Position numbers and translations under genes: made by a program. A stretch of 64,000 bases of DNA, taken from positions 107,756,001-107,820,000 of the forward strand of contig OZ024741.1 of the NCBI GenBank assembly GCA_964016885.1, written 5' to 3'. Shown here one piece after another: positions 1 to 14,116 of this stretch. Position 1 is the first letter of the stretch, and each line of letters starts with the position of its first letter. The notes beneath the pieces are model-generated. The model worked only from the letters and a program-made list of their open reading frames with translations. It did not search any database and was not told the origin of the DNA. Source of the stretch: Eledone cirrhosa. Lineage: Eukaryota.

Positions 1-1500
1 AGGTGGATGGCACGACTTAAAATTCAGATATTGATGGGTGTCTGTGTGTTTATAATATATATCCGTGGTAATGGTGGTGTCGTTTTTGATTATCATTATA
101 TCTAGGAATGGTAATTTGGTCCTACTCATCTCTTTTGTGAATTGGAGAGATGGGTGTAGGTTATTCAGGAGGATATTGAACTCATCCAGAGTATCTAGAG
201 ATTCTGTCCAGATGATGAAACAGTCGTCAAGGTATCTCTTCCAAGATTTTTCAATGTACTTTCTAAAGTCAGTACTATATTTTTCCTCTATTTCTTGGTA
301 GAGTTGTTGTTCTAAGTATCCCATTACAGAGTTCGCGTAAACGGGAGCAAACTTCGTTCCCATCGCTGTGCCTCTAATTTGGATGTAATTCTTTCCATTG
401 AAGAAGAAAGTGTTGTTTTCCAGAATAAGTTTAACTGCGTCTAATATAAATGGCGCTGTGAATCTAATGGGAATCACTTCTCTATGTTTTTCCACCCAGT
501 ATTTAACCGCCTTTATTCCTAAATCATGTGTAATGTTGGTGTAAAGGCTTACCACATCAAAACTGAGTAGAAGTGAATTCGTTTCCGTGGTTTTGGGAAG
601 ATGGGACAGGAAGTCGATATCATCCCGGATGAAACTGGGTATGTGAATACATAGTGGTTTCAAAATAATGTCAACAAAATTGCTTAGACGGTGAGTGGGG
701 CATGTTGGACCAGCTATAATAGGTCTAAGTTTTAAGTCTTTTGGGTGTAATAATTTAATGTACTCACTGTTTTGTTCTCTTACTGCCAGTTGTATTTCTT
801 TTGACTTGTGAACTTTCGGTAGGCCATACAGGTTGCTGGGTTTCGGCTCAAAATTGGTGATGTAGTCTCTTTCCTTATCAGTAAATGAGTTGTGGTATTT
901 TGAAGCCAGGTTGTTGATCTTCTTCATGATGTTGTGGTCTATATTTGACGGTATTTCATGATAGAATGTTGTGTCTTTCAGTTGTTCCTCAACCAAATCC
1001 TTGTAGTATTCAGTATCCATTATAACAACTGCACCCCCTTTATCTGCTTGTTTAATTATTATTGTTTTGTCATTTTGTATACGTTTAAGTGCAGACATTT
1101 CTGATTTGTTAATGTTTGGCCTAACATTAGTATTATGTCTAAGAGGAAATTTAGACAGGATGTCAATGTATTGGTCGAGATAGATATTTCTTCCTTTTGG
1201 CGGAGTGAAATTTGATTTATTCTTTACTAGTGATTCATCACTCTCATTATTTTTATCAGCGAAGAATTCTACAAGACGTAATTTTCGACAGAATTCTTGG
1301 GTATCCTCCTTCAGTTCTTGGTGGTTGACTGTTGGAGTCGGTGTGAATTTCAGTCCTTTTGACAGAATTTGCATTTCATCATTGTCAAGATCTCTTTTAG
1401 ATAAATTAATTATTTTAGGATCTACGTGTACAGCTGTTTTGGGTATGTTTCCTCCTGGAGTTTTTCTTTTTCCGGTTTTTGTTGTCCTGACGTTAAAAAA
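1..1500 (-). CDS. Penelope-like (Neptune-type) reverse transcriptase ORF2; runs off the left edge; -1 frame relative to the upstream ORF1
   Basis: Manual translation from 1500 is stop-free to base 1: IINLS..EMQILSKGLKFTPTP, KQADKGGAVVIMD, LPKVHK, RPIIAG, FDVVSLYTNI, GTAMGTKFAP, RYLDD, LPFLD. Absent from the ORF track because it has no stop inside the window. Confidence 0.93.
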
Positions 1501-2771
1501 TGAATTTTTCTCTGTTCAAGATTTATATTCCTGTTGGTGTTCGCTTGATGAACTTTTGGTCGTGATATTATATTTGGTTTCGTTATGTATTTTGTCCTAT
1601 TTTTGGTATTCTGTATATTATTTTTCTTCCTGCTAGCATTATTTTTAACAATCTGGGAAAATGACCTAGGTTTGCTTTCAGGTTTAGATCGTTTTTTCGT
1701 CCAGTTTCTTGTGGGCAATCTCTGTTGAGATCTTGAGAGTGATCTGGTTATTCTACGTTTTGTTTCCACATTCCTTGTTGGTAGTCTCTGTTGAGATCTT
1801 GAGAATGATCTCCTGGTTTTACTACTTCTCATGGTCTGGTCAAAGGAATACCTATCGTGTTTGTGCTTTTTGTTCATGTTGTGTGCGATAGGGTGTTTTT
1901 GTAGAAAAAGCGAAGAGTTATTACCGTAGTTCTTCTTTGATTCAAGGTAAGGTGAGTGTTTGTGTTGGCACGTGTTCTGGCGTATGTTGTGTTGATGAGA
2001 TTGTCCACTTTTAATGCTTTTTCTCAGGGTTCCAGAGTCTTTACCGTAATTTGCAGCATATTCATCGAGAAATAATTGTTTCTGCTGCCATACCTTTCTT
2101 GATTTGTTTTCTTCTTTTGAGATATCTCCGATCCATAGTTCTCGTAGTTTTTCAGCTATAATACCAGTCGTTAGCTTTGAAATTTCAACTTCAATTTGGT
2201 CATCAATAGCTTCATATTTGGCTTTGTAGCGGGATTGTTTACATTCAGAAATGGAGATGTCGGTCCTGAATTTTGTCAATGTAAGTTCCCATCGGAGTTT
2301 TGTTTCTTCTTCTGGTTCTCCTGCAATTTCTGTAATTAGGTATTTACGAGGGAGTATGGGTGCCGTTAGAGAGAGCCATTTCGAATGTGTTTCGACATAT
2401 TTTTCGCATCTGTATGCTTTCCAGAAATTTTGTTTTCTTATGTTAAGGAATTTTTTCCATGTCTTCCACATTTCTTTTCTTATTCGATGTGTTTTGTTTT
2501 CTAAATTTCTTTCGTTTATTTCTGACATCCAAGGGGGTTGTGGTAGGCTTTCTCTTGTATCTTTGATAACTGTTGGTATAATTTCAGCTAAATTCTTAAT
2601 TTCAGAGTTTATATGTTCAGTTATAAGTTTTCCGTCTGTAGATTGTTTTTCTATTTCCTTTAAAATAGAGGATTGTGTGTCCATCATCGTGATAAGTGTT
2701 GATAATTTCGATGATATCTCCTTTAGAATTCTTTCTGATTCTGTTGGTTTCATTTGTTGCTTTCCAGACAT
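1422..2771 (-). CDS. PLE ORF1, 449 aa: helical/coiled-coil-like N-terminus and a basic R/K/S-rich C-terminus with a duplicated RSQQRLPTRN block
   Basis: Intact ATG-to-stop ORF between the pLTR (2855-3086) and the RT frame, which it overlaps. Confidence 0.75.
   Translation of the reverse strand: MSGKQQMKPTESERILKEISSKLSTLITMMDTQSSILKEIEKQSTDGKLITEHINSEIKNLAEIIPTVIKDTRESLPQPPWMSEINERNLENKTHRIRKEMWKTWKKFLNIRKQNFWKAYRCEKYVETHSKWLSLTAPILPRKYLITEIAGEPEEETKLRWELTLTKFRTDISISECKQSRYKAKYEAIDDQIEVEISKLTTGIIAEKLRELWIGDISKEENKSRKVWQQKQLFLDEYAANYGKDSGTLRKSIKSGQSHQHNIRQNTCQHKHSPYLESKKNYGNNSSLFLQKHPIAHNMNKKHKHDRYSFDQTMRSSKTRRSFSRSQQRLPTRNVETKRRITRSLSRSQQRLPTRNWTKKRSKPESKPRSFSQIVKNNASRKKNNIQNTKNRTKYITKPNIISRPKVHQANTNRNINLEQRKIHFLTSGQQKPEKEKLQEETYPKQLYT
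1494..1500 (-). promoter_or_regulatory. Candidate -1 ribosomal frameshift slippery site U_UUU_UUA
   Basis: caT TTT TTA in ORF1 phase; the -1 frame has TGA at 1518-1516 and is then open through the RT. Confidence 0.65.
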
Positions 2772-2975
2772 GTTGGCATATACACAATAGGAATATATAT
2801 ATAGATATAGATAGGTAAATATACACGGGTGTGTATGATTGTGTATAGAAGATTATATTAATAAGAGGAATTCCAACTTTGTCTGATTTACTCGTTTTAT
2901 TTACAATCCTTTAAAATATATATAATGGTATTATAATGAAATAGTATGATAGAATATTAAATTCTAAGTGTTAAT

Positions 2976-3014
2976 TGAACAAGTACTTTCATGCTTTCGC
3001 AATCTTCAGGTTCA
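2976..3014 (-). ncRNA. Minimal type-I hammerhead ribozyme in the pLTR
   Basis: tgaac CTGAAGA ttgc-gaaa-gcat GAAA gtac TT gttca. Confidence 0.85.
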
Positions 3015-3107
3015 TGATATGTGGTGACAGTCGAGTTTGCAATTTTCAACTGTAATGAGATGGGTAAATTTCCTACCTTTTATACATAATTACCATTCCT
3101 AGATATA

Positions 3108-4016
3108 ATGATAATCAAAAACGACACCACCATTACCACGGATATATATTATAAACACACAGACACCCATCAATATCTGAATTTTAAGTCGTGCCATCCA
3201 CCTCATACAAAACGCAACATCCCATACTGCCTAGCCAGAAGAATTTGTACCATTGTAGAAGATACGAATACCAGGTACAAACGCCTAACAGAACTAAGAG
3301 AATTTTTGCTCAAACAAAAATACCCATCTCTACTTATAGAAAATGGCATACAGCGGGCTATAAAAATACCTATACAACAACTTAGAACAACCCAAAGAAG
3401 AAGAAACCAAGAACTGGTCATACCATTTATAATGACACACAACCCATGTCACCAGAATATCTTCAACACTGCCAAAGCAAACCTACCGATCATTGCTCAA
3501 AGTAATGAATTAAAAGGCTTAATCACAGATCGATCTTTGACTCTTAGTAAAAGACAGCCAAAAAATTTGAAGCAATTGCTAACAAAAGCAAAGTTTGACC
3601 TTAACAACAAAGACCAATCATTCACTGTATCTAAATGCAATGATAATCGATGCGGCACATGTCAATCCATACACGCCGGTCAATATATGAAAACAAAAAC
3701 TGGAAAAATATTCACAAATGCAAATATGAACTGCAAAAGCAGAAATCTAATTTACTGCATTAAATGCCCGAATTGTGAAGAACTATATGTCGGTCAAACT
3801 GGAAATGCACTATCGGAACGTGCACGGGTACACCGTCAACAAATCAGAGACCCAAATGTCCGTCAGATACCCCTAAGCGGCCACCTGGCAACATGTGGTC
3901 AGGGAATATTTATAATATTCCCATTCTACAAATTACACAGCCCAAGTGAAATCAAGAGAAAAATCAAAGAAAAGAATTTTATTGATAAATTCAAACCCAA
4001 GCTAAATGAACAATAA
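3108..4016 (+). CDS. 5'-truncated PLE RT thumb, Cys linker and GIY-YIG endonuclease
   Basis: YYKHTDTHQYL..SCHPPHTKRNIPYCLARR; CNDNRCGTC; CKSRNLIYCIKCPNC..YVGQTG..R..H; PKLN. Confidence 0.92.
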   Translation: MIIKNDTTITTDIYYKHTDTHQYLNFKSCHPPHTKRNIPYCLARRICTIVEDTNTRYKRLTELREFLLKQKYPSLLIENGIQRAIKIPIQQLRTTQRRRNQELVIPFIMTHNPCHQNIFNTAKANLPIIAQSNELKGLITDRSLTLSKRQPKNLKQLLTKAKFDLNNKDQSFTVSKCNDNRCGTCQSIHAGQYMKTKTGKIFTNANMNCKSRNLIYCIKCPNCEELYVGQTGNALSERARVHRQQIRDPNVRQIPLSGHLATCGQGIFIIFPFYKLHSPSEIKRKIKEKNFIDKFKPKLNEQ

Positions 4017-4391
4017 TAACGCCTAGGGGTATTACTTCTACTACCACTATGACCACGACCACTAACAACAACAACAACAACAATAATAATAATAATAAAA
4101 GTGATGTTGATGGTGATGATTAATAGAAAATGCTATTTTCATCATTTCAAAAAAGCAAAACAATTGATACGTTGGATATGACTATTGGTCGTTAGCATGC
4201 TCAACCAGCCGTGACGCTTAAACCAATCAGCTGTAGTAATTCAGTGAAACTACACACTGATTGGTCGAAATACAGTTTACAGGGCTTTGCATTCTGGAGC
4301 CACTTTTCTCTGTATAAAATGTATAAAAGGTAGGAAATTTACCCATCTCATTACAGTTGAAAATTGCAAACTCGACTGTCACCACATATCA

Positions 4392-4430
4392 TGAACCTGA
4401 AGATTGCGAAAGCATGAAAGTACTTGTTCA
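4392..4430 (+). ncRNA. Minimal type-I hammerhead ribozyme in the pLTR
   Basis: Same motif as 2976-3014; palindromic stem III (GTAC). Confidence 0.85.
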
Positions 4431-4550
4431 ATTAACACTTAGAATTTAATATTCTATCATACTATTTCATTATAATACCATTATATATATTTTAAAGGAT
4501 TGTAAATAAAACGAGTAAATCAGACAAAGTTGGAATTCCTCTTATTAATA

Positions 4551-4785
<235 letters not shown>

Positions 4786-10929: not shown

Positions 10930-12110
10930 TTTGATACCCATTATGACACATTTTTGAGGCAACGAGTTACGGCTGGATATCTCTTACAGCACATAGGAAA
11001 ATAATTGAAGGGTACATTAGATATACACATACATACTTCTAAAATACACGATGATCATGGTTGGAAGAACTGTTATTGCTCGAATGTTTTGAGACTTGAT
11101 AACTCACAGACGTCATCCAAAACAAAAGAAGTTAATGTTATCATATTTAATAGAGAAAGCATTAACTATGTAAACGACGACTAGTCCTTTTGCTTGTTAA
11201 ATATATTTAACTTCAACGGGTTCTTCAGTTAGTTGTTAAATTCACTGGATATCTTGAGTATTTCATTCTTGAATATAGTTTTTGTTTGCTCATATCTAAA
11301 ATTATATATGACTTCATTCTCCACATGTTTCAATAATCTGCATTCAGTAATTCCTAAAATTATTTGAAAATATTTCATATACTTCTCAATTCAATAAACG
11401 TTACCATTCAGTACATTATAATTATTGAAGCAGATAAGTCTGCGTGGTTAAGTAGTTCGTTTCCCAATCATGGTTACGATCATTCTGCGTGGAATCTTGG
11501 TAATCTATAATATAATAAAGGGAGGAGTGCAGAAGTGTGACCGCTTTATATGTTTTTATCCCAACAGTAAAATAAGTTAGATTACTTTGAAAAAATAATG
11601 AATAAATATTATATAATTCATCTACTAAATTTTGTAACATGATTAAACATAAATGATTTAATATATTGCTTATGTCAAGATTCACTTCTTTTATATATAT
11701 ATATATACATATCCTCCGCCAACTTGACCACCAACTGACCCCCACCCTCCTCCGCCTTAACTACACCTGCCACCCCCTCCTCGCCCAAGCCATCCTCTCC
11801 TTCATCCAAAACCTCAACCACAACCTCTTCTCCTTCCTCAGCTCCACCAAAGCCCGCAAGCTACACTCACACCTCCCAACCACCCCCATCCACCACCACC
11901 CGCCCATCCCCATACGCCCCCCACTCTCCACCCCTCCATCGACCCCCCTTACCCCCCCCCCCAAAAAAAAACCCACCACTTGTTGTCACCATACCCCCTG
12001 ACCTCCCCCTCTCTGCACCTGAGCGCTCACTCCTTAGTAGAGGCCTTCGCTTCATACCCCACACTCAGCACAGAGACGAATTCCGCACCCGAACGGAAGT
12101 CGAGCGATTC

Positions 12111-13430
12111 GTGCGACGCACGGAGCTACAGGCACATTTCGGCCGAACGCCACCGGCTCCGGACGCCCCAGACCCGTTTCTCGCCCTGGGCCGACGACCA
12201 TCTTCTTGGACGCCGGCCCCAGGGCAATTTAGCACCCTGGACGCGTTCGTCGATGCCAGCCGTAGCGCAGTAAATCGTTTCGACTGCCGCCACCGTTCCA
12301 AACGGTATATCTCACGGGGCGAACTCCTCGCTCTCCGCTCCCTCCGTAGCCGAGATGACATCGTCATCAAACCGGCGGACAAGGGAGGCGCCGTGGTGGT
12401 GTGGCGCGCGGACCTCTACACGGCCGAAGCCCTCAGGCAGCTCTGTAACCCCCTCTTCTACCGCCCTCTACACTCCGATCCCACACCCCTCTACCAACAA
12501 CAAGTTTCCTCCACCATACAAAACCTTGTCGCCTCCTCCCTCCTCCCCTCCACCGCTTCCCACCTCATCGTCCGCACCCCCCGCACCCCCACCATCTACT
12601 TCCTCCCCAAACTCCACAAACCCGACAACCCCGGCCGCCCCATCGTCTCCGCTTGCAACTGCCCCACCGAACTCATCTCCGCCTTTCTCGACTCCATCCT
12701 CGCCCTCCTTGTCACCACCCTCCCCTCCCACATCTCCGACACCAACCACGCCCTGCGCCTTTTCGACTTCTTCACCTACCCACCCGGCCCACAGCCCTTC
12801 CTCTTCACCCTAGACATCAAGTCCCTCTATACCGTCATCCCCCACGCCGACGGCCTACGCGCCCTCAAACACTACCTCGACCTTCGCCCCTCCCCCATTC
12901 CCTCCACCCCCACCCTCCTTCACCTCGCCGAGCTGGTCCTCACCCTCAATTGTTTGTCCTTCTCGGGTGAGTTTTACCAACAGGTCACGGGGGTAGCCAT
13001 GGGTACAAGAATGGGCCCGAACTATGCCAACCTTTTTGTTGGCCATGTTGAGGCCCAAATCTTTGCCCAGTACACCGGCCCCACGCCCGAACTGTATGTC
13101 GTTACATTGACGACTGTATCGGAGCCACGACCCTCACCCGAGAACAGCTCGACTCCTTTCTCTCCTTCTTCTGCTCCTTCCACCACTCCCTCCACTTCAC
13201 CACCTCTATCTCCACCACCCACGTCCACTTCTTAGACATCTCCGTCACCTTCGACCCCTCCCACCACTCCCTCGTCACCTCCGCCTTCTTCAAACCCACC
13301 GACTCCCACTCTTACCTCGACTTCACCTCTTCCCACCCCACCCACACCAAACACTCCATTCCCTACTCCCAACTCCTCAGGATCCGCCGCCTCTGTAGCC
13401 GAGATGCTGACTTCGAGTACCAGGCTTCTT
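12111..13430 (+). pseudogene. PLE reverse transcriptase with frameshifts (around 11980 and 13100), truncated near 13430
   Basis: ORF 12111-13235 shifts frame just before YIDD. Confidence 0.85.
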
Positions 13431-14116
13431 CCGACCATCTCTTCATGGAATACTCGTATGTGGAACTTGACCACCGTGGAATCTACTAACATCATAGGAG
13501 TTTACCAACATTTCAACCACATCCTCTTACGGAATCACCCTATATAACTCACCCACACACACACCCAAGAAAATGTTTTTTCTCCCACACGCCACCTACA
13601 CCCACAACACGCTTAAACCCCACACACACGTGCTTTCCACCACATATTTACACCCTCAGCCTCCGGATTCCTATCCCCCCACCCCTCTATCAACACACGC
13701 ACAGACACTCCGACCTACACCCCACCCCACACACACCTCTTCCTGAACATGCAACCCCGTTCTTCCCCCAACCCTTGCTTTCACATACACACACACACAC
13801 ACACACGTACACCTACACACACACGTCACCTTCAGCCCTCTCCGCTCGGACACCCCGTCTCCCTCTACCCACTCCACCCGCAACCACCCCTACACACCCC
13901 ACACCCTTCCACCACCTGTTTTACCCCTTTTTATTTTCAGTTTATTTTGATCATGCTTTTATATTTATTTTTATTTCATTTCATTTTATTTTGAACATGC
14001 TTTATTTTTATTTTTATTTTTAATTTCATTCGCACCGTTTCCTCCCACCCCCTTTTCACTATATGTCTCTCCACCACTCCCCTACACACCCTTTGAACTC
14101 TCTTCCCAACACTTCT

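Follow-up and report, generated by a model that had tools for sequence, protein, structure and literature searches.

A conserved U_UUU_UUA heptamer as the probable −1 frameshift site between ORF1 and the reverse transcriptase of an endonuclease-containing Penelope-like element in Eledone cirrhosa

In Eledone cirrhosa, a stretch of 64,000 nucleotides (contig OZ024741.1 of assembly GCA_964016885.1, forward-strand positions 107,756,001 to 107,820,000; below, the window) begins inside a Penelope-like element (PLE) that encodes a reverse transcriptase (RT) along with an endonuclease (EN) of the GIY-YIG type. The RT-EN frame of this element overlaps the end of a separate upstream open reading frame (ORF), ORF1, and has no usable start codon of its own. 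The −1 phase between the two frames is fixed, and the heptamer T_TTT_TTA within their overlap is conserved. It is likely, with a confidence of about 0.85, that ribosomes get to the RT-EN through programmed −1 frameshifting at U_UUU_UUA, close to where ORF1 ends. The majority of ribosomes would complete the ORF1 protein of 449 amino acids (aa), and a minority would slip at Phe-Leu and produce an ORF1-RT-EN fusion of ~1,194 aa. That ribosomes slip here, that they do so seldom, and what ORF1 does are what we infer. An abundant ORF1 product and a rarer fusion had been proposed in the preliminary description of this DNA, and the conservation across deeply diverged families reported below strongly supports that part of it.

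The 449-aa ORF1 overlapping the RT in exact −1 phase was present as described earlier, and the RT frame runs for 775 codons to the GIY-YIG domain. The TGA (1518-1516), the heptamer in the correct phase (1500-1494) and the ORF1 stop 23 codons further on were all found. The RT-EN frame contains the motifs IINLS, GLKF, DKG, YGLPK, GTAMG and YLDD, a C-X4-CxxC linker and GIY-YIG, and a protein search gave 793 homologues of it. The GIY-YIG domain lies in the same frame as the RT and matches Pfam PF01541 above the cut-off (29.2 bits, scored on the identical inverted copy). The RVT_1 match (E 1.4e-6, 28.6 bits) is slightly below the cut-off of 29.6, and the GLKF, DKG, GTAMG and YLDD motifs fit a PLE-type RT. 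The linker is of the CX2-5CxxC form that defines Neptune and is common to Nematis; the putative Neptune placement is based on this linker and on RT motifs, and not on a tree with named references. The pseudo-long terminal repeats (pLTRs), together with an inverted 5' segment of 1.55 kb that repeats the 3' end of the element, make up the usual PLE layout. Tandem copies are spaced 4,211 nt apart. The genome holds 1,557 candidate copies, and the 40 best-scored are ~100% identical across the junction of the frames. The 775-codon frame is intact in many of them, and well over a hundred near-identical copies have intact frames. This is a very young, high-copy, EN-containing (EN+) family, and the earlier judgement of a young element with open frames and near-identical pLTRs (295-nt copies, 99.3% identical) holds. 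In none of the intact copies did we meet the canonical single RT+EN ORF; all have two overlapping frames.

To enter the RT frame, a ribosome would find its first in-frame Met only 34-162 codons into it, past the conserved RT start in every family examined. Therefore, the RT frame has no usable start codon. In the window element, the first RT-frame AUG (1374, residue 48) indeed follows IINLS (residues 35-39), as had been noticed, and an AUG 16 codons 3' of the ORF1 stop precedes GLKF. Among the best 120 of the 793 RT-EN homologues, none exceeded ~800 aa, although lengths to 1,339 aa were searched. When ORF1 relatives of greater length were sought, the one hit was a gene model from a mussel, an unrelated fusion that has no RT; this is weak evidence.

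We then consider the integrity of the T run. Exact matches to the junction in the whole genome numbered 155 for a run of six T's and zero for runs of five or seven, and six T's were found at all 32 junctions within the 30 top loci. Older copies spanning the slip site were intact in 24 of 27 cases and substituted in three; none carried an indel. Contigs of four public runs (four organism labels, 10% threshold) showed no indel at the T run, and the indels present in their ORF1 tail, at 1553 and 1626, were multiples of three. Two raw-read DNA runs (2% threshold; depth ~63 and ~38, with few read starts) showed no T-run indel among the positions listed. Thus the genomic copies, older copies, contigs of other runs and raw reads rule out an assembly or homopolymer artefact, and the six T's on which the preliminary description was built are real.

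The same arrangement is found in other families of this genome. Family B, a second PLE family, has a copy ~10 kb left of the window (L062:6700-9703), which is 5'-truncated and carries a private one-base insertion and one stop. The ORF1 of family B ends in Asn-His-Phe-Leu, encoded with CAT TTT TTA; the genome contains at least 368 exact junctions of this family, and the RT was in −1 at 29 of 30 fetched loci. A search with the RT N-terminus motif gave 1,259 matches, the first 30 of which represent four families in this genome. At these 30 loci the heptamer was in phase in 22, displaced by indels in three and mutated in three; the remaining two loci were truncated. The RTs of the four families are 46-49% identical and their ORF1s 26-30% where a match was found, and all four ORF1s end in CAT TTT TTA with the RT in −1. 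The first 100 listed of 378 family B junctions comprised 88 with six T's, five with seven T's (in-frame), four shorter and three substituted. Seven-T copies that fuse the frames therefore arise, yet they stay rare and are no commoner than shorter ones.

To look beyond this genome, we used 67 distinct RT anchors from scans of metagenome and metagenome-assembled genome contigs, supplemented by five representatives of the genome itself. The contig hits are presumably eukaryotic contaminants, against which PMC8557442 cautions (here and below, published work is cited from the accessible parts of each source). An ORF1 homologue lay upstream of 11 anchors, six of them from outside data, and the RT was in −1 in all 11; the heptamer was T_TTT_TTA in ten and T_TTT_TTG in one. 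The outside elements sharing both site and phase have 40-49% RT identity. Those relatives that could be named are bivalve molluscs, and viral contigs yielded no relative. Among the other 56 anchors, 14 had another long ORF in −1 (eight of these with G_GGT_TTY) and three had one in +1; five were open for at least 250 codons upstream, 24 were without such an arrangement and ten were too short. Therefore, the two-frame layout is not universal among these PLEs. On a quick RT tree of unnamed loci only, the six-T elements group together, apart from the G_GGT_TTY group; the family C row there is a frameshifted copy with a long branch.

At the protein level, a search with the ORF1 N-domain gave 397 cluster representatives at 50% identity, the best 150 of which were used. 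Of 152 proteins, the 82 that reach a length of at least 330 aa made up the tested set; the other 70 fell below it and were excluded. Phe-Leu occurred within the last 45 residues of 68 of the 82 long homologues and was the commonest dipeptide there, compared with 9 in a control window, 6 for Leu-Phe and a mean of 6.4 (maximum 16) for shuffled sequences. In the ORF1 alignment, the F425 column is at least 90% conserved. Directly before Phe-Leu stands one of His, Ser, Arg, Pro, Asn, Tyr, Asp, Gly and Leu. It turned out that Lys, Glu, Gln, Met and Trp, which have no codon ending in T, preceded none of 69 such sites with a local frequency of 21% (p ~1e-7, a value that overstates independence, since the lineages are related), against 46 of 82 at other Phe-Leu sites. 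This bias is, as far as amino acids can tell, what a conserved T_TTT_TTN requires, and the heptamer appears to be conserved beyond protein-coding need. Together with the −1 phase in 11 of 11 anchors, it runs counter to one of the refuting outcomes named in the preliminary description, a heptamer not conserved among relatives. In five homologues (P0053, P0075, P0115, P0137 and P0056), ORF1 ends in Phe-Phe, Tyr-Phe-Arg or His-Phe-stop and not in Phe-Leu; these endings are possible variant slip sites.

A separate EN+ PLE lineage has an unrelated ORF1 of 340-470 aa, the RT in −1 and a G_GGT_TTT/C heptamer. Its members are L210, L211, L213, L215, L217, L223 and L225, from one metagenome assembly, and L234. 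All of them except L234 have a conserved bulged hairpin ~8 nt downstream, and its paired bases covary (seven loci aligned and folded). The hairpin is also present in L227 and L209, where the heptamer is a variant one. A comparison of the ORF1 of this lineage with that of the window family showed no homology (hhalign probability 0.06%). G_GGT_TTY followed by a hairpin is, in its sequence, the textbook anatomy of a −1 frameshift, and G_GGU_UUU ranks among the shiftiest heptamers (PMC5009743).

Several results weigh against a frameshift in the window family. Phe-Leu is missing from the last 45 residues of 14 of the 82 long homologues, and the heptamer DNA of the 68 Phe-Leu proteins is deduced from amino acids. 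The last base of the single T_TTT_TTG relative breaks the usual eukaryotic rule (PMC3561942). The RNA 3' of the window-family slip site folds no better than shuffled sequences (z −0.1 to +1.0). Folding and a simple scan for H-type pseudoknots, both compared with shuffles, gave no 3' hairpin or pseudoknot common to the 10 families, and z fell below −2 in the 3' regions of only 2 of 10 relatives. The bare heptamer of human immunodeficiency virus (HIV) slips at ~0.1% (PMC3561942); therefore, very infrequent slipping must be enough, or else there is some further stimulus. A 7-bp long-range stem that begins 2 nt past the heptamer was rejected as not significant (z −0.08). At position 1519, a substitution is private to the window copy; in the majority of copies the base is C (minus strand), which completes a 6-bp stem around the heptamer, and the upstream fold with the window version has z −1.8.

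The distance from the slip site to the ORF1 stop suggests a different candidate stimulator. Not one of the 68 homologues has its stop in the 8 codons that follow the Leu, although stop rates of 3-8% would predict 16-36 such cases. In 20 of the 68, whose tails are ~10% alike, it lies at exactly 10 codons. On the tree these 20 fall into clusters (6 changes, against 17 in shuffles), and therefore represent a few lineages. In the queuing view, a terminating ribosome would park the next one on U_UUU_UUA, and the stop would be kept at least one ribosome length away. Queuing behind the ORF1 stop is thus a candidate stimulator in the relatives, with no obvious fit to the window family, which, like its closest relatives, has its stop at 22-23 codons; in family B the distance is 10 codons. 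In L157, a relative known at the DNA level, the stop is one codon past the slip site. Tentatively, and with less chance of being right than wrong, one may go further and suppose that in a large EN+ PLE lineage of aquatic invertebrates ribosome queuing, and no RNA structure, drives the −1 frameshift. Taken with the G_GGT_TTY and hairpin lineage, recoding in the manner of gag-pol would then be common among EN+ PLEs and re-tuned more than once.

Other routes to the RT-EN have to be weighed against the −1 frameshift. One is that the T run with the following AG is a 3' splice acceptor, so that RT-EN is translated from an mRNA that has been spliced (or trans-spliced) and takes its AUG from a small first exon, and ORF1 from unspliced RNA. 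We consider it improbable, while noting that TTTTTTAG looks acceptor-like, that PLEs are known to carry introns, and that AG directly follows the T run in 8 of the 10 families with DNA, a further point against the frameshift. The first AG is in phase 2 in all 10 (in 8 of them this is forced), and at 3087-3072 of the window family an ATG is combined with a strong consensus for a phase-2 donor, in family B with a weaker phase-2 donor. Such a pair is, however, missing in family C, L153 and L161; the window-family and family B sites are non-homologous, and the former overlaps a TATA-like element and so probably lies 5' of the start of transcription, if the promoter is read correctly. Phe-Leu is not followed by a codon starting with G at 21 of 68 sites. 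An acceptor predicts neither exactly six T's, nor a fixed ORF1 phase, nor a stop at least 9 codons away, and the sister lineage has G_GGT_TTY with AG in mixed phases. A probe for junctions without the normal upstream bases gave a single match, a point mutant; this is weak evidence, since PLE copies keep introns. No RNA data set was listed as containing the element, and a sequencing run of unspecified kind had no joints; neither result bears on splicing.

An added U could also fuse the frames without ribosomal slippage, if RNA polymerase or RT stuttered in a few transcripts. RT indels at the HIV U6A motif have been reported (PMC5737442), and seven-T copies do occur in family B. Stuttering, in contrast, needs no X_XXY_YYZ phasing of the run in ORF1 and leaves the G_GGT_TTY and hairpin of the sister lineage unexplained. 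Moreover, seven-T and shorter runs are nearly balanced among the first 100 listed family B junctions (5 versus 4), and the window family has no seven-T copy against 155 with six; we regard this route as very unlikely. To the same low degree we credit a separate translation of RT-EN, by reinitiation or from an internal AUG or a non-AUG start, with the heptamer incidental. Reinitiation on a second ORF is known in LINE (long interspersed nuclear element)-type elements, and the AUG beyond the ORF1 stop would be available for it. Against this, the first Met varies over codons 34-162 and often falls within conserved RT motifs, and the conservation of Phe-Leu and of the preceding T is unexplained. 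The remaining alternative is a single-ORF element that lost one base, the broken form being amplified in trans or the loss being an assembly error. Homopolymers are error-prone, and accidental frameshifts 5' of the RT are described in Naiads (PMC8557442). Four families here and outside elements at 40-49% RT identity share the site and phase, the raw reads and the contigs of other runs concur, and no fused relatives were found among the homologues listed; these results effectively refute a deletion.

The ORF1 protein was modelled with AlphaFold2 from 82 sequences. The model has long helices over residues 11-241, with a predicted local distance difference test (pLDDT) score mostly >90 for residues 80-241, and disorder beyond. 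The tail is rich in Lys, Arg, Asn and Ser (25% Lys+Arg), its C-terminal part has an isoelectric point of ~11.3, and 23 residues follow the final IHFL. Within this basic tail there is a 66-nt tandem duplication (window 1690-1821), whose units are 74% identical and vary in number among copies and runs. The ORF1 sequence contains no CCHC knuckle, a Pfam scan of it gave nothing above cut-off, and Foldseek against PDB and BFVD found no match, capsid fold included, at E up to 0.001. The best ESM Atlas score, 0.85, is a lead only and gives no assignment. Homology to Gag, which the preliminary description had implied in calling ORF1 Gag-like, is unsupported: there is no CCHC knuckle, the prediction is all-helical, and neither a capsid nor another fold matched. 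By analogy, ORF1 may act as an RNA chaperone, like Gag or LINE ORF1p; it probably binds and chaperones the element RNA through its basic tail.

The coordinates of the features are collected in Table 1.

Table 1. Features of the element and its surroundings (window positions)
Feature	Position	Strand	Remarks
ORF1, 449 aa	1422..2771	−	ATG at 2771, TAG 1424-1422, stop-free
Slippery heptamer T_TTT_TTA	1494..1500	−	ORF1 frame reads CAT TTT TTA = His-Phe-Leu
TGA closing the RT frame, five codons 5' of the heptamer	1516..1518	−	
ORF1/RT-frame overlap	1422..1515	−	A-rich; 3' of the heptamer without significant structure
RT-EN frame, −1 relative to ORF1	1..1515	−	775 codons; extends 809 nt past the window start (position −809)
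First AG 3' of the T run, RT-frame phase 2	1487..1488	−	Candidate splice acceptor (rival model)
5' pLTR, 295 nt	2793..3087	−	99.3% identity with its 3' counterpart, which lies beyond the window
Hammerhead-like core (CUGAAGA, short stem, GAAA)	2986..3009	−	Recognized by eye
TATA-like element, also readable as ATG + phase-2 donor consensus	3072..3087	−	Rival model
Inverted 5' segment: second, 5'-truncated thumb + endonuclease + 3' pLTR	3088..4642	+	98.3% identity

Rfam gave no hammerhead match (E up to 1) on the 3' pLTR copy or in five loci. L153, L161, L228, L289 and L292 have minimal or degenerate hammerhead-like cores 150-250 nt 5' of ORF1, and in the families of this genome CCAAT- and TATA-like motifs precede such cores. 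Two further PLE sequences were seen. At window 11739-13489 (+) there is a GC-rich and more distant PLE RT (~30% identical) with a GVAMG motif; its N-terminal extension, rich in Pro, Ser and Thr, is in the same frame, and a single frameshift lies close to the catalytic motif. L031:3353-4612 (−) is what is left of a PLE of another type, 420 codons of thumb and GIY-YIG with an insert rich in Asn and Thr, inside a 1-kb inverted duplication.

Descriptions, annotations and in vitro expression of EN+ Penelope elements treat them as having a single ORF. If in this lineage the enzyme is made solely as an ORF1 fusion, the consensus ORFs and gene calls of hundreds of invertebrate elements misplace its start, and a role would be gained for an ORF1 family so far uncharacterised (397 clusters at 50% identity). 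With well over 100 near-identical intact copies, the family lends itself as a practical model to biochemical work on PLEs. Its slip sites, which lack RNA structure but have constrained stop spacing, form a natural series that would allow a direct test of termination-induced queues in eukaryotic −1 frameshifting.

Canonical EN+ PLEs are described as single-ORF (PMC8557442, Craig et al. 2021), and, according to the legend of Fig. 1 in the same paper, a frameshift with pseudoknot can set the ORF1 of a PLE apart. What the preliminary description stated about the literature, namely that EN+ PLEs are single-ORF and that ORF1s and frameshifts are reported for EN-less Athena/Terminon elements, was about right; an ORF1 with frameshift and pseudoknot is drawn for some PLE types (PMC8557442). 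Extra ORFs in EN+ PLEs are already in print: esterases in Neptune-like or Penelope-like elements (PMC5408684, PMC3905857), a Fundulus Neptune with two non-overlapping ORFs (PMC12602865) and a zinc-knuckle upstream ORF in Chara Chlamys (PMC8557442). The accessible parts of PMC3846280, PMC6431247, PMC11167929, PMC6515669, PMC13712778 and a 2026 retrozyme preprint contain nothing on programmed frameshifts in EN+ PLEs, and those of PMC5009743 do not mention Penelope. In the literature searched, which did not extend to Repbase entries, we found no description of this ORF1 or slip site; a prior mention is possible. The idea of a frameshift in PLEs is known; apparently new is an EN+ lineage in which ORF1 is helical, the U6A site fixed and the stop spacing constrained, with no RNA stimulator found. 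The PLE types with ORF1, frameshift and pseudoknot we take to be the EN-less Athena/Terminon and Coprina. A frameshift of this kind is present in Athena/Terminon elements.

With the Neptune-type EN+ PLEs (PMC8557442), the window element shares the RT, the CX2-5CxxC linker, GIY-YIG, the pLTRs, the inverted 5' end and tandem arrays; it differs from them in having a separate conserved ORF1, placed in −1 overlap with the RT, and a heptamer that is conserved as well. With the PLE types whose ORF1 is separated by a frameshift, it shares a helical or coiled-coil ORF1 upstream of the RT that would be joined by a frameshift, whereas it has an endonuclease, is dispersed and not telomeric, and no pseudoknot was found in it. 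The GIY-YIG in frame with the RT excludes it from the EN-minus Athena/Terminon class. The esterase PLEs, Fundulus Neptune and Chara Chlamys are likewise EN+ PLEs with coding sequence upstream of the RT, but their upstream proteins differ and the accessible parts of those papers report no frameshift signal. The analogy with retroviruses, drawn in the preliminary description, fails at the stimulator: relative to HIV-1 gag-pol, the window element has no detected 3' stem-loop and its relatives no conserved 3' hairpin or pseudoknot, and ORF1 shows no Gag homology. The analogy stands for the heptamer and for the proposed logic. HIV-1 gag-pol uses the identical U_UUU_UUA (PMC3561942, PMC5009743), and the window element would, in the same way, make an abundant structural protein and a rare enzyme fusion.

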